Source: a virus (Duplodnaviria; Heunggongvirae; Uroviricota; Caudoviricetes). Taken from it: DNA of 64,000 nucleotides. The stretch is taken from the IMG/VR virus record IMGVR_UViG_3300035208_001992. One strand, written 5' to 3'. Under the pieces are notes generated by a model, which was not told the DNA's origin, made no database searches, and saw only the letters and a program-made list of their open reading frames with translations. This document shows, piece after piece, positions 47,276 to 56,865 of the stretch; position 1 is the first letter of the stretch, and every line of letters starts with the position of its first letter. The translations under genes and the position numbers were made by a program.

Positions 47276-48102
47276 TGCCATTCGTTCTTTCGTCAATCGA
47301 ACAGATGTGTGACGCAAACATTCGATCTGCGTGGCCACCTACTTGGGATCGTTCTTCTAAGAATGGTTCTAAGATGATTGGAGCGTTTGCAAAAGCGTTC
47401 TGCCAGGCACTTTCGAAGTCAATCAAAGATGCCACGATAAACGGAGGTACAATATCTGGCGGTGGCTCGCCTCCAGGCGGTCCTGTTGCAGGTGCAGTCC
47501 TTACGATACCTCCTGGTGGGCTTGTTGCCACACCACCAAAGATTAAGCCGGTTTTTGACTGTCCTGATTTCTCATCGCCAGATTCAAACAACGTCGATCA
47601 ACATGGCTCTTACGCCGCTTGGTTACGAGCTGTTGTTGAGCACTTGGACGACAGCATAGCAACGCAATGGAACATCTGGATAAAGACATGGACGTTGCCA
47701 TCTGGCGTTGCGCTTGGCGGCGTGGCAGCTTGGATACCTCCGTCATCAGCAGCCCCTGGTCCATGGACAGGAGGCACGATCACGCCTTTCATCTTCATGG
47801 GCCAAGGATCTAACTCGTCACCGGCGCTTGATCAACTTGCTCTAGTAACGGTCAGGACAGGCAAGGCAAAAACTGCCTATGTTGTAAGCGGCAGTGAAGT
47901 AGTTGGGAATGTGTCAGTAGCTGATGGCAACTCCAAGCAACTCATTGAATCAGTGGCAACAGGTTTCTCGAAAACGCTTGAACAGTTCTTCGAGCAAGTT
48001 ATGATCAAAGACCCGACTGGTTCAAGTGCAACTGGCACAGCATTTCCACCTGCAGGTATCGTGACTGGATCAATCACTGGCCTCAAGTTCGACGTCACAT
48101 AA
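47275..48102 (+). CDS. Gly/Pro-rich putative virion (baseplate tip) protein
   Basis: Coupled to the spike gene; three G-x-A/S-x-PP-G-G-type repeats. Confidence 0.55.
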   Translation: MPFVLSSIEQMCDANIRSAWPPTWDRSSKNGSKMIGAFAKAFCQALSKSIKDATINGGTISGGGSPPGGPVAGAVLTIPPGGLVATPPKIKPVFDCPDFSSPDSNNVDQHGSYAAWLRAVVEHLDDSIATQWNIWIKTWTLPSGVALGGVAAWIPPSSAAPGPWTGGTITPFIFMGQGSNSSPALDQLALVTVRTGKAKTAYVVSGSEVVGNVSVADGNSKQLIESVATGFSKTLEQFFEQVMIKDPTGSSATGTAFPPAGIVTGSITGLKFDVT

Positions 48103-48113
48103 CCTTGTAAATA
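48101..48113 (+). promoter_or_regulatory. AASNTTGTAAATA motif
   Basis: AACCTTGTAAATA upstream of the SD-led thyX gene. Confidence 0.7.
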
Positions 48114-48138: not shown

Positions 48139-49839
48139 ATGTCGGAACGTAACTACACAGATCTAGAAGTACAAGTTTTGAGCCGCTTCTTCACTGGCGT
48201 TGCAGAGCGCGCTAACGTGTATGCAGCGAAGCCAGCGCTGTCTTTGACAGTATGGACATTCCTTACCGGATCATATTCGAGATCTGGTCTCACGATGCGT
48301 GAGAAGTTCATTCTGACTCTGCAAGAGATCTACGAAACTGAATACGAAGCAACGCTAGAAGCGCTTGCAAGCGGCGCAGACAATGAACTCGACAAGATGA
48401 TCGAGCGCGCTGAACGCTTCTTGTCTGTTTGGGCTGTGCAATACGGCCACAATAGCTTGAAGGACTCATGCATCGATCGCTTCGCTGTTGAAGGCATCTC
48501 GATTCGCGCAACCAAGTTCATTGAGTGGGTTGCGCTTGGAGCTTATCAAGAGAAGAGCACGCGCTACGCCGACTTCTCGAATGTCAGCTTCGTTACGCAC
48601 TTCATGCCCGAATGCATTCGCGGCATTGCTGACGTTGCGTTCCAGAATTGCTTAGATGCTTACAAGAAAATCTTCGAAGCAGCGTTCAATCATTTCAACG
48701 CTGTGTTAGCAGACGAAGTGCCACATGCACAAGTTCGTGAACGTACGGCACGCGCCAAAGCATTCGACATTGCTCGTTACGTGTTACCAGTTACGACGCC
48801 AACGTCTATCGGCATCACGATTCCATCTCGTGCAAGTGAAGAGCTCATCCGTTGGCTCATCTGCTCGCCATACATCGAAGCAGTCGAAATCGGAGAGAAA
48901 CTGTACCGGTGCGGCATTGAAACCAACCAAAGTCTCATCAAGCACGTCGAATGGAACAGCGCAACAGCCGCCGATCATCCAGCGCTACTGCCAAACGCAG
49001 ACAGTTCTTTGCCTGGTGATCTCGTCGAGCTACGCGACAAACTTCTTTCAGCTGTGTACGGAACAGATCTAGTCAAAGGCAATTCAAAGCTGTTTGGCGA
49101 CAAGAACGCTGTGAGGCTTCACACTGCGCCTGCAACGTCGCCCAACCATCCGCGATATCTTTCGGCCGCGTCGCTTGCAAAGGAACGCTTGTCCTTGACG
49201 CAACCGCTCATGTCGATTGCTGAGACCTTGGTCGAATTCCCGTCAAGCATCGCAGCGATCTTCGACAAGCTGTTAGTCAAGCGTGGTCCGCATCAAGCTA
49301 TGCCGCATGCAATGGGCATCGGTGAACTTGTCTTCTCAGGCGTCATTGATTTTGGCGCATACCGCGACTTGCAACGTCATCGTCGCGGTGGCCAACTTCG
49401 CGTGTTCCCAACAGTTGCTTACGGTTACTCTACGCCTCAGTTCATCAAAGACAACGTTGAGCTTTGCGCACTGTACGACACAACAATCGAAAATCTGGTG
49501 AACTGCGGCGTAGCCTACAAGCGCATGTGCGACAATGGCTATGGCGTATATGACCCATCGATAGTCGAGTACATGACAGTGCTTGCGCACAACGTCGAGT
49601 TCACGTACACGTGCACTGTGGAGCAAGCTGTGTACATCGTTGAGCTACGCACGTCTCCTGCTGGACACATTTCATATCGGAAGTTTGCGCAGGCAATGGC
49701 AACATGCCTGTTCCATGAAATCCCAGAGCTCGTCAAGCACGTGAATGTCTGCTGGGACGGAGATAGTGACCGTCGCGCATCAGAGGAGAACACGCAGCGT
49801 AAGCTCGACAATCTTCAAAGTAAGGCTGGGACAGCATGA
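48139..49839 (+). CDS. thyX: FAD-dependent thymidylate synthase, tandem two-domain form
   Basis: QEKSTRY and FDIARYVLP in the N-terminal half, RDLQRHR and ELRT in the C-terminal half; 566 aa. Confidence 0.85.
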   Translation: MSERNYTDLEVQVLSRFFTGVAERANVYAAKPALSLTVWTFLTGSYSRSGLTMREKFILTLQEIYETEYEATLEALASGADNELDKMIERAERFLSVWAVQYGHNSLKDSCIDRFAVEGISIRATKFIEWVALGAYQEKSTRYADFSNVSFVTHFMPECIRGIADVAFQNCLDAYKKIFEAAFNHFNAVLADEVPHAQVRERTARAKAFDIARYVLPVTTPTSIGITIPSRASEELIRWLICSPYIEAVEIGEKLYRCGIETNQSLIKHVEWNSATAADHPALLPNADSSLPGDLVELRDKLLSAVYGTDLVKGNSKLFGDKNAVRLHTAPATSPNHPRYLSAASLAKERLSLTQPLMSIAETLVEFPSSIAAIFDKLLVKRGPHQAMPHAMGIGELVFSGVIDFGAYRDLQRHRRGGQLRVFPTVAYGYSTPQFIKDNVELCALYDTTIENLVNCGVAYKRMCDNGYGVYDPSIVEYMTVLAHNVEFTYTCTVEQAVYIVELRTSPAGHISYRKFAQAMATCLFHEIPELVKHVNVCWDGDSDRRASEENTQRKLDNLQSKAGTA

Positions 49840-50027
49840 CAGAACAAAGCGTCATTGAAAGTGCCAAGCAGGACATCAAAGCCAAGATCACAGCGTACAA
49901 GATCCTAGCAGATCCAGCGAATTCTGAATTGCAACGCATCGATCGTCGTAAGTTGATCGAGCAAGTGAATCAAGATTTGACTGGCTTACTTGGCATCTTG
50001 AATTCAGTCACTGGCGACGTCACTTGA
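49836..50027 (+). CDS. Hypothetical protein
   Basis: 63-aa coupled ORF. Confidence 0.55.
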   Translation: MTEQSVIESAKQDIKAKITAYKILADPANSELQRIDRRKLIEQVNQDLTGLLGILNSVTGDVT

Positions 50028-50326
50028 GTAGCGACCAAATCTTATTGATAGCAGCCATAGCTACTCCTGCAGCGTTCAAACGCAGCTTTATGTCAGCATG
50101 GTTCGTCAATACTTGGTTCAACAACTTGTTCAGCTGCGCTTTATGCTTGGGCTTTTGGACAGCGTCAACTGCACTGTTCATTAGCTTTGGCTTCTCATCG
50201 CAACTACTTTTGTCGATACCAAGCGCGGTCATTGCATACGTCATCGATCGTTCAATCAGCCTGTTAGAGGCAAAACAAGAAATTGCTCAAATTATGAGCA
50301 TTGACCTATTCAACAAGAAGGAATGA
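50024..50326 (+). CDS. Small membrane protein with a CxxCxxxW motif (DUF1360-like)
   Basis: LFSCALCLGFW; several hydrophobic segments; the TTG start overlaps the upstream stop. Confidence 0.55.
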   Translation: MSSDQILLIAAIATPAAFKRSFMSAWFVNTWFNNLFSCALCLGFWTASTALFISFGFSSQLLLSIPSAVIAYVIDRSISLLEAKQEIAQIMSIDLFNKKE

Positions 50327-50329
50327 ACA

Positions 50330-50929
50330 ATGCACGCAACAACTGCAGACGCCATGCACAACGCGGCAAAGCTGATCGTCGCGAAGCTGCACGCAGGCTT
50401 CCGCCGTGTTTGCTCGTGCAATGCGTTCAGTGATCTGCACGTCAACAGTATCGAAGCGTCGCACGACGTTTTGTACGTATCGGTATGCTCTCGAGACAAG
50501 ACTTGCGCAAGAGACATCAATCTGCGCTTCAACATCTGTGGCACAGCAAAGAACGCGTTTGTTGGCGCGGTCTTCATGCATGACAAAGCGATCGTGATCA
50601 ATAGAGCGTTGTACGTTAACTCAACGTCGCTTGAGTTCATTGCGATCGGCAGCATCATTGGTCAGCACGTGATGCGTGAGCATTGCTTCTACTACGCAAT
50701 ATCAAGGTTGCGCACGTTTAGTGATCCTGCAGGTGTGATTGATTCGAGTGTCTTGTCCAACACAGGCATCACGCTTGCATGGAATGGCAGCCGTGGAAGC
50801 GCAGTACTTTCAACTGACAGTCTATCAATAAAGACCGCGATTGGAATCACGCGTATTGAGATGTCTCGTGAGGCGTTGACTGCGCCTGTGCAAGACATCC
50901 GTCAGCAAATCCGCAACGCAATTCACTGA
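50330..50929 (+). CDS. Hypothetical protein
   Basis: AAGGA RBS; 199 aa. Confidence 0.65.
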   Translation: MHATTADAMHNAAKLIVAKLHAGFRRVCSCNAFSDLHVNSIEASHDVLYVSVCSRDKTCARDINLRFNICGTAKNAFVGAVFMHDKAIVINRALYVNSTSLEFIAIGSIIGQHVMREHCFYYAISRLRTFSDPAGVIDSSVLSNTGITLAWNGSRGSAVLSTDSLSIKTAIGITRIEMSREALTAPVQDIRQQIRNAIH

Positions 50930-50932
50930 TTC

Positions 50933-52636
50933 ATGTTTGCTGTATTTAGGCGCGTCATTGACTGGTTTGACTCCGAAACTCGCTTGAATGAGGCCGAATA
51001 CGTCCAAATCAGTCGTTGGGCTGCTTTTCCTGGATCGTTTGGTCACGCGCTGTTTTGGTGGTTGATTCCACAAATTTTCCAGTTAGTAGAACTGGGCTGG
51101 GCCAGGATGGTAAACATCTTGGCCTTTTTGTTTTTCCCGTTGCTCGCTAGGCCTATCGGTGGAACGCGTCCTGCACTATTCAGGTTTTTGTGGATCACAT
51201 TTTGTACTTGGCAACTATTTGTATTCCCATGGATCATGTACCGGCTGAATGACTACAACCAGTACTGGCTTGTGAGTCTCGTATTCTTCAGTCTCTTGTC
51301 AACAGTGATGCTTCGTTCATTCGACATACTGTTAGTGACAGGAGCTGGAGCAATCGCAATACTCGTCACTGCTAGCGACGCGTACCATGCAAGACTCGGA
51401 CTGGTGTTCTCATCAATCACGTCATTCGCGTCGTTCTTTGGCATGGCGTACATCAGATACATACAACAAAGGCTTGTCACTGCTCGCATGAACTTAGCAT
51501 CAGCATACAAACAGTTGCAACAGACGAACGCGCTCAAAGACGAATTCATGCTCAACGTAGCACATGAACTTCGCACGCCACTCGCTGTAATGTCAGCAAT
51601 CATCGATCAGCTTGAGATTGACAAGCAATCCAAGCGCTACAAGTTGTTGATCGCAACTATGAATCAATTTAGTCGCCAGACAGACGAGTTGCTAAACGCC
51701 AATTCTCATAAGCCTGTAGTGTTAGACAGCACACGAATTGATGCAGCCGACTTCGTAAAAGATATTCATGAGATGTTCAGCGTCTTAGCTGCAGCTGATG
51801 GCATCGAACTAAGATCAATTGTGAAAACAAAGATCGTGTTCACTGCTGATCAAGGACGTTTGACTACAGCAATCTCGAATTTAGTCAGCAACGCGATTAA
51901 GTTCACAAAGGTTGGTGGACGTGTAGCAATAGTGATGAATGCAGATTACTCAGGTCATGTTTACATCAAAGTGAAGGACAATGGCATTGGCATCCCACAT
52001 GACAAGATAAAGCACATCTTCGAGCGGTACTACCAGATTGAGAACGGGTTAGCACGATCAGGCTTTGGCATTGGGCTTACGCTTGTCAAAGACATAGTCG
52101 ACGCGCACAATGGCGTGATCAGCGTCACGTCTGCTGAAGACGACGGAACAACGTTCATCGTGAAGCTACCAGCAAATGCTGAGATCATCGGCTCGAAGCC
52201 ATCAATGTCGATGATATCGCATGCGCAGTCTGTGAAGATCAAGTCAAGACTTGGCGATACAACTGCACTAGTCGTCGAAGACAATGCTACGTTGCGCCAG
52301 TTCATAGTCGATGTACTGACAGATGCTGGACTCAACGCAATCGGGCATGAATCACCAGTTACTGCTCTTGCATTCATAAGTTCGTCACAGCCCAAGCTGT
52401 CGCTCGTCATTTCTGACGTCGGACTTCCAGGCATGGATGGCTACGCTTTTATCAAAGCACTCCGCAACATCAGCGGTTACGAATCTACGCCTGTCGTGCT
52501 AGCGAGTGGTTACTCACGGCACGCAGTGCTGAACAACGTCAAAGATCTCAACGCGTCAGCGCTAGAGAAGCCGTTCAACCGGTACCAACTTATCGAACAC
52601 ATCAATACAACCTGCAATCTACAAAAGAACACGTGA
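50933..52636 (+). CDS. Membrane-bound hybrid sensor histidine kinase with a receiver domain
   Basis: Multi-transmembrane N-terminus; H-box AHELRTPL, N-box NLVSNAIKFT, G1 DNGIGI, F-box IFERYY, G2 GFGIGL; receiver VVEDN, ISDVGLPGMDG, LEKPF. Confidence 0.93.
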   Translation: MFAVFRRVIDWFDSETRLNEAEYVQISRWAAFPGSFGHALFWWLIPQIFQLVELGWARMVNILAFLFFPLLARPIGGTRPALFRFLWITFCTWQLFVFPWIMYRLNDYNQYWLVSLVFFSLLSTVMLRSFDILLVTGAGAIAILVTASDAYHARLGLVFSSITSFASFFGMAYIRYIQQRLVTARMNLASAYKQLQQTNALKDEFMLNVAHELRTPLAVMSAIIDQLEIDKQSKRYKLLIATMNQFSRQTDELLNANSHKPVVLDSTRIDAADFVKDIHEMFSVLAAADGIELRSIVKTKIVFTADQGRLTTAISNLVSNAIKFTKVGGRVAIVMNADYSGHVYIKVKDNGIGIPHDKIKHIFERYYQIENGLARSGFGIGLTLVKDIVDAHNGVISVTSAEDDGTTFIVKLPANAEIIGSKPSMSMISHAQSVKIKSRLGDTTALVVEDNATLRQFIVDVLTDAGLNAIGHESPVTALAFISSSQPKLSLVISDVGLPGMDGYAFIKALRNISGYESTPVVLASGYSRHAVLNNVKDLNASALEKPFNRYQLIEHINTTCNLQKNT

Positions 52637-52667: not shown

Positions 52668-53294
52668 ATGGGTAACGATGCAATGCAAGAAACAGAATCA
52701 ACAAAACGTTTTCCAGTTTCGTTGAGTGAGCTGTCAGAGCGATCAAACAATCTGGTGATGAAGCTGCGCATGGAGTGCAAGCAACCAGCTCTCGCAGATG
52801 ATCTGCGTGGTCTCTTTGACCAATATGCTTGGGTTGTTCGGCTACATCAACTTGCAGCGGAAGAGAGCGCTGATCGTCGCGAAGTTGCTGACTTGCAATT
52901 CGCTCACGAGACGCTCGCTGCGACATCACCTGACATGATGGACGTTGTCCACTTCGCAGCTGACGTCGAGAAGTTCAGTCCGCGTCTTGCAACCACTGCA
53001 CGACAGCTACTCACAATGCTCACATGCGGACAGGTTGACGAGAGCGCGTTCTACTTGGATCAACCTGAAGATACTCCAAATTCTGTCGACTACACAGCGT
53101 CTAAACCGATGCCAAATACATGGCGTAAGGTACAGCGCGATCATGAGATACTGTTAGCTCTAGTCCGTGGATATCGCTTCCTACTCGAAGCTGATGACCG
53201 CACGTTGCGACATCATCGCATGACGCGCTTGAAGCTGATTCGCAGCATTAGAGGTATTGAGGTACGCGCTGCAGCGAAGGGGACAGTTGTCTAA
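52668..53294 (+). CDS. Hypothetical protein
   Basis: 208-aa ORF with a GGAG RBS. Confidence 0.65.
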   Translation: MGNDAMQETESTKRFPVSLSELSERSNNLVMKLRMECKQPALADDLRGLFDQYAWVVRLHQLAAEESADRREVADLQFAHETLAATSPDMMDVVHFAADVEKFSPRLATTARQLLTMLTCGQVDESAFYLDQPEDTPNSVDYTASKPMPNTWRKVQRDHEILLALVRGYRFLLEADDRTLRHHRMTRLKLIRSIRGIEVRAAAKGTVV

Positions 53295-54056
53295 ATGTCA
53301 AGACCACCAATCATACGGTTGCCGGCAAAGGCTGAGTTCTATCGGACTCTTAGCATACTTTGGTTGCGCTATGAGCAAGGCTGCCACGTAATCACGTGCG
53401 AGCGCTCACCAGTGATCAAAGGAAGTCGGCCAGACGTACTTGGATTGAATCGATCGAACCAATTGATCGAAGTTGAGATCAAAGTCGATCTTCGTGACAT
53501 GCAACATGATGAACAGAAAGATCTACGCAAGAAGCTCATGACTGACGTTGGGCGTTCACGCCCGGCTACAGCTAACTACTTGTATTACTTCGTGCGTGAG
53601 GACATGGTTGCAGCAGCACTCTCTGATTTGCCAGAGCACTGCGGAGTTCTTTCGCCGCACCACGGCGTGAAGATGCAAGGGACTGGATTGCCAGTCGTTG
53701 CTGTTCATCGTAAGGCTGTCCAAATACATGATGTCAAACTTGATCAAACAGCCGTCAAGAAGATGGTTGCGCAGCAAGCAAGTACGCTCGCACGCTTCGC
53801 TGTCGAGATTGTCTATGGCAAGCTCATGAATGATCCATCGAGCAAAGAGGCAGTGAAGATTGGACTATCTGAATCTGTGCCGAGTCCAGGCGGAATCAGC
53901 CCGCCGGAGGCGATTTTTGATGAAGGCGACCGCACGGCTCGCAAGCTATCAGGATACGGGCTTGATCCACAATGGTCAAACCGAAAACAGCAGCCAACCG
54001 TCCAGCAACGATCAAGTGGACCACGCGTGGTCGCCGCAAAGATTGTAAATAGCTAA
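53295..54056 (+). CDS. MmcB-like PD-(D/E)XK nuclease
   Basis: RPDVLGL...IEVEIKVDLRDMQHD..K, NYLYYFV, LPEHCGVL. Confidence 0.7.
   Translation: MSRPPIIRLPAKAEFYRTLSILWLRYEQGCHVITCERSPVIKGSRPDVLGLNRSNQLIEVEIKVDLRDMQHDEQKDLRKKLMTDVGRSRPATANYLYYFVREDMVAAALSDLPEHCGVLSPHHGVKMQGTGLPVVAVHRKAVQIHDVKLDQTAVKKMVAQQASTLARFAVEIVYGKLMNDPSSKEAVKIGLSESVPSPGGISPPEAIFDEGDRTARKLSGYGLDPQWSNRKQQPTVQQRSSGPRVVAAKIVNS
54039..54051 (+). promoter_or_regulatory. AASNTTGTAAATA motif, leaderless spacing
   Basis: AAGATTGTAAATA-N6-ATG of polA; lies inside the end of the upstream gene; no Shine-Dalgarno sequence. Confidence 0.75.
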
Positions 54057-54057
54057 C

Positions 54058-56865
54058 ATGCAGGCCACCAAGATCGAGCCATTCATTGCGCCAACAGAGC
54101 AAGGACGCGTAAGTGTTCTTTGCATAATTGCAGCCTCGGACGTAGCGTTTTCGGCTGACCCGATATACGGGCGCTTCTTTGATGTGATGAGTCGGAAAGT
54201 GACAACAGGCTGGGCGATTCACGCGCTAGATACAAACCCGCGCAAGCTCGAGTCAACGTCAGAAGTCGATGCAATCGTTGATCAGCATCGCAATCGTCTA
54301 TGGCGCATGGTTGATCACTACAAGCCACAAGTGGTTGTCGTGTTCGGTGCGAATACGATGAAGGCGATCAATCCTGACTTGCGCATGGTCTCGAACAGAC
54401 ACATTGCGCACTACATTCATCAAATCAAATCTCCGCTGACACAGCGTGACACTGCGTTCCTATGCATGACGCAGCCACGCACAATCATTACCAATCCGTT
54501 TGAAGCGCTTACAGCGAAGGAAGACTTCGTCAAGCTCAACATGCTGGCTCGTGGCAAGCATTATTGGCGTGAAGGCGAGATAGTAGATCTTAACACGAGC
54601 AAGGCTGCTGAAGAGTACATCGACTTCTTGCTTGAAGATCATAAGGGATGGGTTGCGTACGATACCGAAACGCGCAACCTGAACATGGCTCACAACAACA
54701 TTCTTGGCACCATGCAATTCGCAACGGATGACAAGACTGGATATGTGCTCTATTGGGACCACATCTACAACAAGCGTGACAAAGAGCATGACCTTCGTGT
54801 ATTGACGCCTAAGTTGAAGCGCTTGTTTGGCGGCAAATCTAACATCGCTGGTTGGGCGATGCACAACGCCCAATTCGATATTGCGCAGACTCGAAACCAT
54901 TTCGATATCGGATGGTGGTCGAAGACAGTTTTTGATACGCTGCTGTACACACATCATCTTGATCAGAATCGGAATGACAAATCCCGCAAGGGAGCTATGG
55001 TCTATTCCGAGGGTGGATACTCGCTTAAGCAGTGCGCATGCGAGTTCATCGGATACCGTGGATACGACGCTGAAACACTAGTGAGTCGTAAAGACGGTGG
55101 CGTGCTAGATCTGCCATACGACAAGTTGACGCGCTATGCTGGCCAGGACGGTTTCGTCACTTACCGTTTGCTTACGTACTTGCAATCTTGGGCAGCAGCG
55201 CAAGGCGTGAAAGACAAAGTGAATCGCTTCAGTCGCGTGATTCACTCAGGCGCGATCAAGGCGTTCCAGCAGATCACTAAGAACGGCATGGAAGCTGATC
55301 CAAAACAGCTTGCGATGCTAGCGCGACCTGGGTCAATTCTTGACGTCGAATCGAAGCGCATTGACGCGCTGTTTAAGCAAGATCCTGTAGTACAAAAGAT
55401 CAATCTTGAGCTTCTCAAGAAGAAGACTAACGCAACGACGTTCTGGGAAGTTCCCTGGATCTTCGATATCGGCAAGCCTGCTAGTCGTAATCTGCTGTTC
55501 TTCACGAGTCCAAGTGGCCGTCAGTATCCAAAGAATGACGACGGCAAGTACTCATGCGATGACAAGTTCCAAGATCGCTACAAGGATCAGGATCCACTTG
55601 TTGGACTGCTTGCTACGTACTCAGAAATCCAGAAGCTTCGCTCGTCTTACGTAAACAAGATCAGCATCGCGCTGCATACGGCGAAGCACAACAAGACCGA
55701 CCTCATCGATGGTCGTGTTCATTCGCGCTTCTTGCTTCACGGCACAAAGACCGGGCGTCTATCATCTGTCGGCCCAAACATGCAGCAAGTGCCGCGTGCC
55801 GACAACGAGTACAAGAAGCCAGTCAAATCGATCTTTACGACCCCAACTGGTACGATCATTCTCCAAGGCGACTTCGCTGCGGCAGAGGTTCGTATGTGGG
55901 GTTCTTTGAGTCAGGACGCATTCCTATGCAAGCTACTCACTGACTCTTTCAACAAACGAGCAGCGTACAGAGCTAACCCGCTAGACGAACGTTTACGCGA
56001 CGAAGCCGAATTGATGGCAGACATTCACAAGCAGACTGCTTCGTTGATGTTTGGCATTGATCTCAAGGCTGTCACTAAAGACATTCGTACGATCACGAAG
56101 GGCATCACGTTCGGTTTGATCTATGGCCGCGGTCGCAAGTCAATTGCTGTCCAGCTCAAGCGATCCGAAGAAGAGACCGGACAGCTTTGCGACAAGTTCT
56201 TTAGCCAGTTCCCAGGTGGCGTTGCATGGCTTGAAGAGCAAAAGGAATTCTGCAAGCGCTACGGTTTCGTTGAGACACCATTTGGTCGACGCCGCTACCT
56301 TCCATGGGTCTTCTCTGAGGACGAAGGATTTGCAGCGTCAGCGCTGCGTCAGTCAATCAATACTCCTGTGCAGTCAGCATCAGGAGACTTTGCCACGCTG
56401 TCGATTGCCTTGCTCAATGAAGAGATTGCTCGCAAGAGACTATCTCATCAGTTCAAGCTTGTGAACGCTGTGCATGACTCCACACTGTTGGAGATACCAG
56501 CATCTGTCGATGCTCTGGCAGAAGCCACAGCTATGATGCGACACAATTTTACAGTCAAGTCACGCGAAGTCTGCGCATCTGAATTTGGCTTCGACACAGC
56601 CGCTCCAATGGACATCGATATTGAAGTGTCTCAGTGGAAAGCTAAGCGCTGTCCTAAGTGTGGCAATCAGTACAAGTTCCACAAAGAGAAGTGTGACGCA
56701 GTTTTGAAAGGTCCAGATAAAAAGCCGCTCAAGGATTCAGACGGCAATGATGTAAAATGTGGCAATCGCGATTTTGAGGTCGTGAAGCTCAATGGGGGTT
56801 GGGGAACCTTGATCAACTTGGACGAAACAATGTCTGGGTATCGAGCCGCCGCTCTTGGATTCTGA
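54058..56865 (+). CDS. polA: DNA polymerase family A with an N-terminal UDG-like domain, 3'-5' exonuclease and a C-terminal Cys4 insert
   Basis: Exonuclease motifs YDTET, HNAQFD, YAGQD; TGRLSSVGPNMQQVP; motif A GDFAAAEVR; motif B RTITKGITFGLIYG; motif C NAVHDS. Confidence 0.95.
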   Translation: MQATKIEPFIAPTEQGRVSVLCIIAASDVAFSADPIYGRFFDVMSRKVTTGWAIHALDTNPRKLESTSEVDAIVDQHRNRLWRMVDHYKPQVVVVFGANTMKAINPDLRMVSNRHIAHYIHQIKSPLTQRDTAFLCMTQPRTIITNPFEALTAKEDFVKLNMLARGKHYWREGEIVDLNTSKAAEEYIDFLLEDHKGWVAYDTETRNLNMAHNNILGTMQFATDDKTGYVLYWDHIYNKRDKEHDLRVLTPKLKRLFGGKSNIAGWAMHNAQFDIAQTRNHFDIGWWSKTVFDTLLYTHHLDQNRNDKSRKGAMVYSEGGYSLKQCACEFIGYRGYDAETLVSRKDGGVLDLPYDKLTRYAGQDGFVTYRLLTYLQSWAAAQGVKDKVNRFSRVIHSGAIKAFQQITKNGMEADPKQLAMLARPGSILDVESKRIDALFKQDPVVQKINLELLKKKTNATTFWEVPWIFDIGKPASRNLLFFTSPSGRQYPKNDDGKYSCDDKFQDRYKDQDPLVGLLATYSEIQKLRSSYVNKISIALHTAKHNKTDLIDGRVHSRFLLHGTKTGRLSSVGPNMQQVPRADNEYKKPVKSIFTTPTGTIILQGDFAAAEVRMWGSLSQDAFLCKLLTDSFNKRAAYRANPLDERLRDEAELMADIHKQTASLMFGIDLKAVTKDIRTITKGITFGLIYGRGRKSIAVQLKRSEEETGQLCDKFFSQFPGGVAWLEEQKEFCKRYGFVETPFGRRRYLPWVFSEDEGFAASALRQSINTPVQSASGDFATLSIALLNEEIARKRLSHQFKLVNAVHDSTLLEIPASVDALAEATAMMRHNFTVKSREVCASEFGFDTAAPMDIDIEVSQWKAKRCPKCGNQYKFHKEKCDAVLKGPDKKPLKDSDGNDVKCGNRDFEVVKLNGGWGTLINLDETMSGYRAAALGF

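Follow-up and report, generated by a model that had tools for sequence, protein, structure and literature searches.

A predicted hybrid histidine kinase with an unnamed six-helix membrane input domain in a lineage of uncultured jumbo phages

Bacterial hybrid kinases such as ArcB, BarA, RcsC and LuxQ pass phosphate on through a histidine phosphotransfer (HPt) domain, which in the unorthodox or tripartite kinases ArcB, BarA and TorS lies C-terminal to the receiver. The usual view of phages is that they gauge host state by means of small repressors, arbitrium peptides or quorum-sensing receptors that they have captured, and histidine-kinase signaling by virulent giant phages is, to our knowledge, almost unstudied. 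Our search of the literature found no functional study of any phage histidine kinase, only passing mentions, among them one of two-component genes in phages of ammonia oxidizers (bioRxiv 10.64898/2026.05.02.722434). Here we analyze a gene at positions 50933-52636 (+) of a 64,000-nucleotide stretch of DNA, hereafter the window, which corresponds to bases 152034-216033 of the 278,473-bp linear IMG/VR virus record IMGVR_UViG_3300035208_001992. An earlier note on this stretch had described the gene as a complete membrane hybrid histidine kinase with about six transmembrane (TM) segments and no large periplasmic domain. Pfam searches, AlphaFold2 models and a family alignment confirmed that description, from the TM segments through the H, N, G1, F and G2 boxes to a receiver with its phospho-Asp and Lys.

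The kinase core and its six-helix input domain

The kinase gene is the sole long open reading frame (ORF) at the locus, carries no frameshifts, and encodes a 567-aa product (P0001) whose orthologs on syntenic phage contigs are 33-63% identical. Three matches exceed their curated Pfam cut-offs, namely HisKA at aa 202-255 (E 1.1e-6), HATPase_c at aa 306-414 (E 3e-28) and Response_reg at aa 446-557 (E 4e-15). The signaling helix, continuous with the sixth TM helix, and the dimerization and histidine phosphotransfer (DHp) domain occupy 51461..51727 (+), where the predicted phospho-acceptor H211 (codon 51563-51565) lies in an HELRTP motif that is invariant in all 12 family sequences. The catalytic ATP-binding (CA) domain follows at 51728..52192 (+), and its boxes (N316/N320 for N, D349/G351/G353 for G1, F363 for F and G377/G379/G381 for G2) are invariant in 11-12 family members. 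Within the receiver (REC) domain at 52262..52612 (+) we find E449/D450, the phospho-Asp D495 (codon 52415-52417), S525 and K546; all 11 sequences compared keep E/D449, D450, D495, S/T525 and K546-P547, and the protein terminates 7 residues past this domain. All 19 of the functional positions checked are invariant or conservatively substituted across the family, and the core can be aligned to the solved structures of HK853, SrrB and VicK (PDB). With its DHp H-box, GHKL boxes and fused receiver, the protein is a hybrid HisKA-type kinase of predicted activity.

The DHp-CA-REC order, the boxes and the receiver residues are the same as in RcsC and LuxQ and in the kinase-receiver part of ArcB, TorS and BarA. 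Unlike these bacterial kinases, the phage protein approaches no NCBIfam equivalog cut-off, has neither an HPt domain nor a partner, is preceded by a different and unnamed six-TM (6TM) input, and is the product of a jumbo-phage lineage with which it co-diverges. The C-terminal HPt of ArcB, BarA and TorS likewise has no counterpart here, and only a distant cellular relative (P0128) has a fused one.

The input domain (50933..51460, +; aa 1-176) comprises an N-terminal cytoplasmic helix and six TM helices. Hydropathy places the hydrophobic segments within the first 176 residues, and the AlphaFold2 model of aa 1-195, built from a 12-sequence alignment (pLDDT 94, pTM 0.85), puts the TM helices at about 28-49, 55-72, 80-105, 110-126, 130-146 and 150-176, with loops of no more than 6 residues and with TM6 running unbroken into the helix that bears H211. 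R73, R79, R128 and the residues from R175 onward fall in predicted cytoplasmic loops, which fits an N-in, C-in topology. Because the loops are too short for a periplasmic binding domain, the cue would have to arise inside the membrane or at its cytoplasmic face, or reach the domain through a partner protein. Seven residues (Y23, E53, R58, W87, P99, D131 and R175) are invariant in all 12 family members, and the charged ones among them, at or within the membrane, point to a specific site and not to a plain anchor.

This domain is rare. When the TM domain by itself was searched exhaustively (phmmer) against 1.84 billion representative proteins, only 10 matched, most of them encoded on phage contigs; aa 1-200 gave no Pfam match at E<=0.01, and the domain matched no NCBIfam family. 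Its fold resembles the MASE and 6TM_PilS sensor domains of kinases and diguanylate cyclases (TM-score 0.6-0.69, E 0.01-0.1), Foldseek E-values being weak throughout the comparison (0.01-0.4), and the language-model feature similarity to MASE/PilS-type domains is 0.95. The best solved match is the 6TM domain of Pseudomonas aeruginosa ImcA (PDB 8wcn), with a TM-score of 0.55-0.58 and a weak E-value. MASE2, MASE6, MASE7, MASE8, MASE11, 6TM_PilS and the ImcA domain are likewise six-helix bundles with minimal loops placed directly before a signaling output domain; unlike them, the phage domain matches none of their Pfam models and has its own seven-residue invariant set. The domain thus fits the MASE/PilS-type class, this being a moderate likeness of fold without proof of common descent, and we describe it as what the model suggests it is, a rare, unnamed 6TM family with a MASE/PilS-like fold. 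The TM region of ImcA docks the membrane partner IsmP (PMC10904736), which provides a precedent for partner-mediated input.

Two further kinds of described kinase deserve comparison. Intramembrane-sensing kinases of the BceS/LiaS type have two TM helices and an ABC transporter or LiaF-type partner, whereas the phage kinase has six TM helices and neither partner; no ABC transporter or LiaF-like neighbor was found at its locus. Kinase relatives are carried by at least 100 IMG/VR contigs and several PHROG families, and other huge-phage hybrid kinases (LR756501; PHROG families 20458 and 5982) are likewise phage-borne without an obvious partner. These are related to the present protein by the generic core only (23-35% identity) and none shares the 6TM domain. 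The unrelated example at LR756501.1 36067-38280 (L008:2918-5131) is a 737-aa PAS-HisKA-HATPase_c-REC kinase of a 735-kb uncultured phage, with PAS domains ahead of its core and no domain like the 6TM sensor. Its gene adjoins a GH16 glycosidase-like gene.

Relatives, synteny and selection

In a word-based search of 5.8 billion proteins, the closest relatives of the kinase were 44-63% identical, followed by a sharp drop in score to generic cellular hybrid kinases, the best of which reach only about 25-31% identity, over the core alone. The phage members fall into three groups. In group 1 (L006, L007, the ERZ22666135 contig, L089 and L090) the kinase lies between a ThyX-like gene and PolA, in the order ThyX-like gene, small ORFs, ~200-aa gene, kinase, ~208-aa gene, ~253-aa gene, PolA and DnaB; L006 is part of a 101.8-kb contig. 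At least five related phage contigs, which come from different samples, share this ThyX-like-to-PolA block together with the kinase at 33-63% identity. Two of the 10 TM-domain matches are further syntenic phages at 33-35% identity, one of them with a PolA intein, and one relative had been annotated too short, its frame being open through the whole TM domain from a GTG start that overlaps the upstream gene. Group 2 (P0124-P0126) comes from contigs of unknown genes, on which the kinase stands in front of a primase and neighbors match the primase, SNF2 helicase and other proteins of the present genome at 28-30%. Group 3 consists of one protein, P0129, on a distantly related phage-like contig with two other genes that match this genome (35% and 33-44% identity); it is the split form (L141:1480-3158), in which the gene for a 138-aa single-domain receiver overlaps the start of a gene for a 421-aa receiver-less 6TM kinase; an acyl-carrier-protein-like gene is found near it. 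Every phage member keeps the receiver as its only output, fused or split.

Cellular members also exist. The relatives of P0127 include a protein from a Fibrobacterota metagenome-assembled genome (MAG), and P0128 is encoded on a 5.2-Mb chromosome and has an added C-terminal HPt. A scan of GTDB with P0128 gave mostly generic kinase-core matches; four Desulfobacterales/deltaproteobacterial loci reach the TM region, and no usable host clue emerged. IMG/VR scans, with a single protein or with the TM-domain alignment, and a scan of JGI metagenomes yielded no further members. We built a tree on the core and receiver only, excluding the TM domain and including 41 cellular hybrid kinases. Groups 1 and 2 come together (SH-aLRT 94), and with P0129 and the cellular P0127 they form a clade apart from the 41 cellular kinases (SH-aLRT 99), while P0128 falls outside this clade on a long branch.

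Across the family, conservation holds for each of the TM, DHp, CA and REC domains, to the same degree in the sensor as in the catalytic core, while a 23-residue interdomain linker is variable. Between this phage and two syntenic relatives, synonymous divergence (pS) is saturated at about 0.75, against nonsynonymous divergence (pN) of 0.26 and 0.37, a pattern similar to that of the neighboring ThyX-like gene. The earlier note had set relaxed selection on a decaying host capture against its own reading; the synteny, the saturated synonymous sites with low pN and the invariant catalytic residues lead us to reject a decaying or stray capture. These comparisons show the gene to be an old, vertically inherited component of an uncultured jumbo-phage lineage, kept by purifying selection.

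The viral origin of the record, also claimed in the earlier note, is well founded. The window holds genes for a major head protein, primase, helicase, ligase, a ThyX-like protein, PolA and DnaB. Its PolA and its head protein share only 27-32% identity with their counterparts in the cultured jumbo phages Erwinia Yoloswag and Y3, Pseudomonas Lu11, Dickeya AD1 and Burkholderia BCSR5, none of which has the kinase input domain. No near-identical DNA was found among GenBank phages. The full stretch is present in two independent metagenomes, from landfill and groundwater, and the kinase protein occurs also on a 305,891-bp contig. The label "lytic-type" used in the earlier note derives solely from the absence of an integrase match in the 278-kb record, whose completeness is about 74% (CheckV). 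The clues to the host conflict, as Shine-Dalgarno use (~46% against a background of 6%), the relative from a Fibrobacterota MAG and the Proteobacteria-infecting cultured relatives do not agree, and we name no host.

Probable transcription unit and neighboring genes

The gene order around the kinase is as first described, with a CxxC membrane protein and a soluble protein without known family upstream and the polA block downstream. The 199-aa protein is encoded at 50330..50929 (+), its stop codon lying 3 nt before the kinase ATG, and its orthologs overlap the kinase start in L006, L007, L089 and L090; no family or fold was found for it, and an Atlas search gave low-confidence, uninformative leads. 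Ahead of it, 50024..50326 (+) encodes a 100-aa membrane protein in which the motifs KRSF and CxLC are invariant and which has a weak DUF1360 match. Directly downstream of the kinase, 52668..53294 (+) encodes an all-helical 208-aa protein, conserved in five phages, with an invariant His159 and a poor AlphaFold2 model (pLDDT 63). A complex prediction of the kinase cytoplasmic part with this protein gave an uncontrolled score of 0.00, which is evidence neither way. The genes for the 100-aa, 199-aa and 208-aa proteins are each conserved in the five group 1 phages, and none of the three products has a recognizable family. Only in group 1 does the CxLC protein accompany the kinase; it is absent from the limited flanks that could be inspected for groups 2 and 3, where the 199-aa and 208-aa genes were not seen beside the kinase either. 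A functional link of the three proteins to the kinase is possible but unsupported. Two suggestions of the earlier note are likewise unsupported: no evidence here speaks for redox input via the CxxC protein, and nothing in the evidence connects lysis timing, the patatin or the SAR-like lysin with the kinase.

A promoter-like 13-mer, AASNTTGTAAATA, occurs in 8 copies in the window against 0.2 expected, with one mismatch allowed. The copy ahead of the ThyX-like gene, AACCTTGTAAATA at 48101..48113 (+), probably marks where transcription of the unit containing the kinase begins; three relatives (L006, L007 and L089) have its TTGTAAA core at the same place. The next copy, at 54039..54051 (+), stands ahead of PolA, which starts at 54058, and would bound the unit downstream. 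The kinase start has no Shine-Dalgarno sequence. We infer from this arrangement that the kinase is probably co-transcribed with nucleotide-metabolism and replication genes and that its translation is coupled to that of the 199-aa gene. Within the kinase ORF, over the TM2 codons, 51099-51135 (+) could form a strong terminator-like hairpin (11-bp stem with 6 GC pairs) followed by a T-run, which may reflect mere Phe/Leu-rich coding or may be an attenuator of kinase expression.

Several other features of the block were observed. The ThyX-like protein (48139-49839, +), present in every syntenic relative, is roughly double the normal size at 566 aa; it has a Pfam Thy1 match at 85-238 and a PHROG thymidylate-synthase match at 380-524, which may mean a tandem or fused enzyme of the ThyX type. 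The 253-aa protein at 53295-54056 (+) shows a D...E-x-K pattern (PDVLGL...EVEIKV) that is PD-(D/E)xK nuclease-like, and matches PHROGs 2776 and 631, both of them function-unknown. PolA (54058-56865, +) has a weak N-terminal match to the uracil-DNA-glycosylase superfamily (aa 60-158, E 0.002, below cut-off) ahead of its 3'-5' exonuclease and polymerase domains. In L089 (11085-15537), the PolA gene contains an intein (Intein_splicing match) and the homologs of the 208-aa and 253-aa genes are separated by an inserted gene for an HNH endonuclease.

Phosphorelay partners and possible outputs

The earlier note had recognized no HPt or DNA-binding regulator in the window, and searches of the whole 278 kb gave the same picture except for one weak helix-turn-helix (HTH). 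Across the record there is no match to HPt (PF01627), no second canonical receiver and no OmpR-type output domain (Trans_reg_C), and a regular-expression search of all ORFs for an HPt-like motif gave nothing credible. The search for GerE-type domains returned a single weak match outside the window, at 89963-90055 (-), with a below-cut-off E of 0.0035; the 284-aa ORF in which it lies has no receiver, and this GerE/LuxR-type HTH may be a sigma-factor region 4. The sole other receiver-like protein is a 267-aa cREC protein (PF20274, E 1e-21), also outside the window, at about 236770-237576 (-) (L003:1150-1956). This type is the cyclic-phosphate processing receiver of NAD/ADP-ribose conflict systems, described for jumbo phages and described as never associated with histidine-kinase/two-component systems (Iyer et al., PMC7824862). 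The sole other HATPase_c match is explained by a GyrB-like topoisomerase subunit in the window. The available flanks of the relatives likewise hold no HPt, canonical receiver partner or output regulator. Within the ~74%-complete record, therefore, there is no multistep phosphorelay with HPt and terminal response regulator in the same genome, and the kinase is an orphan in the available sequence, a quarter of the genome possibly missing.

We propose that the kinase is made in the infected cell from the ThyX-like-to-PolA transcription unit, with its translation coupled to that of the upstream 199-aa gene, and that its 6TM bundle would sense a cue within or at the membrane, such as the condition of the lipids or the envelope, the status of ions or protons, or a partner protein in the membrane. 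The continuous helix from TM6 into the DHp domain would relay the signal from the bundle to the kinase, which would autophosphorylate on H211 and transfer the phosphoryl group to its own D495. In the most speculative step, proposed because no phage HPt or output regulator was found, the receiver would exchange phosphate, in either direction, with a host HPt or response regulator, and the phage would thereby tune host signaling to a cue that it senses itself. We put the probability of what the sequences by themselves show, an intact, selected kinase of the phage lineage, at about 0.85, and that of the whole chain, from sensing to phosphate exchange with a host HPt or regulator, at about 0.45. 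Distantly related giant phages retain the same gene, so that these viruses themselves probably sense a membrane cue, and the fused HPt of P0128 indicates that a relay design exists in the wider family. The earlier note had proposed much the same, namely that the phage senses an intramembrane cue and rewires a host phosphorelay; the architecture fits the sensing, and the rewiring is a reasonable proposal more than a finding.

Several points weigh against this proposal. The HisKA score is barely over its cut-off (29 against 26.9 bits), with the H-box itself canonical; all statements on sensing are inferred from architecture, and we know of no ligand for any MASE-type domain of such a fold. No host HPt or regulator can be named, and the public runs that contain the full stretch include no RNA run. 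A phage-encoded partner could lie in the missing part of the ~74%-complete record, and a receiver-only output, fused or split, fits a terminal receiver equally well.

This last point leads to an explanation that we regard as somewhat unlikely yet a serious contender, in which the kinase is a self-contained module with the receiver as its end-point and no HPt, phospho-D495 switching the kinase itself or binding a phage or host protein in the manner of CheY, DivK or CpdR. The receiver is, after all, the sole output in every phage member, group 3 has its free 138-aa receiver encoded by a gene that overlaps the kinase start, and neither the genome nor the flanks of the relatives hold an HPt; most characterized hybrid kinases, however, pass phosphate via HPt, the cellular relative has a fused one, and no candidate target was identified. 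That a phage-encoded partner has simply gone unseen, either an HPt or regulator in the missing ~26% or an unrecognizable phosphotransferase among the neighbors, seems to us improbable. The CheckV completeness of 74% and the 305,891-bp contig with the same protein leave room for the former, while the 199-aa and 208-aa genes, which flank the kinase in five group 1 phages with start/stop overlap, and the all-helical 208-aa product with its His159 make the latter conceivable. Neither neighbor, however, matches any family, an HxxKG-type motif is lacking, both genes are absent beside the kinase in the available flanks of groups 2 and 3, and synteny among related phages alone shows no functional link.

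The direction of phosphate flow raises a different explanation. The HE..T motif, which is tied to phosphatase activity in HisKA kinases, is conserved in the family (H211, E212 and T215) and makes phosphatase activity or reverse flow possible. LuxQ-like hybrid kinases can run in reverse, the NCBIfam label for LuxQ being kinase/phosphatase, and RetS pairs with GacS. The phage protein might then be mainly a phosphatase, phosphate sink or decoy that drains a host HPt, or pairs with a host kinase as RetS does with GacS, and so shuts a host pathway. We think this quite improbable, since a pure phosphatase or decoy would not need the ATP-binding boxes, all of which are invariant, and conservation is as high in the sensor domain as in the catalytic core. 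Hardly credible, finally, is a recent host capture (moron) without a phage-specific role, or an artifact of assembly or binning. Many "phage" database records with kinase matches are contaminated or prophage ends, and rare cellular relatives exist, but here the gene has phage replication genes on either side in the middle of a contig, keeps its place in five phage contigs of different sample origin, has diverged to the same extent as core genes, and occurs, with no frameshifts and with its catalytic residues invariant, in a full stretch recovered from two independent metagenomes.

Hybrid kinases are textbook and huge-phage kinases are known; what is new here is this family with its unnamed 6TM sensor, found so far mostly on phage contigs, its co-divergence with jumbo-phage core genes, and its fused and split receiver forms. 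Our host-relay proposal has a bolder counterpart, which we consider unlikely, namely a dedicated viral two-component system, new in its input domain, in which the virus-specific 6TM sensor would read the state of the membrane (proton-motive force, superinfection or envelope attack) and the receiver-only output would directly control the phage program (replication or lysis timing, or exclusion) with no host relay. The family is well defined and testable, as it spans several phage sub-lineages and offers a confidently modeled sensor with seven invariant residues, and H211 and D495 as mutation sites. If it is a true sensor, jumbo phages would make decisions from their own membrane-level input, and a new family would be added to the poorly understood MASE-type sensors.

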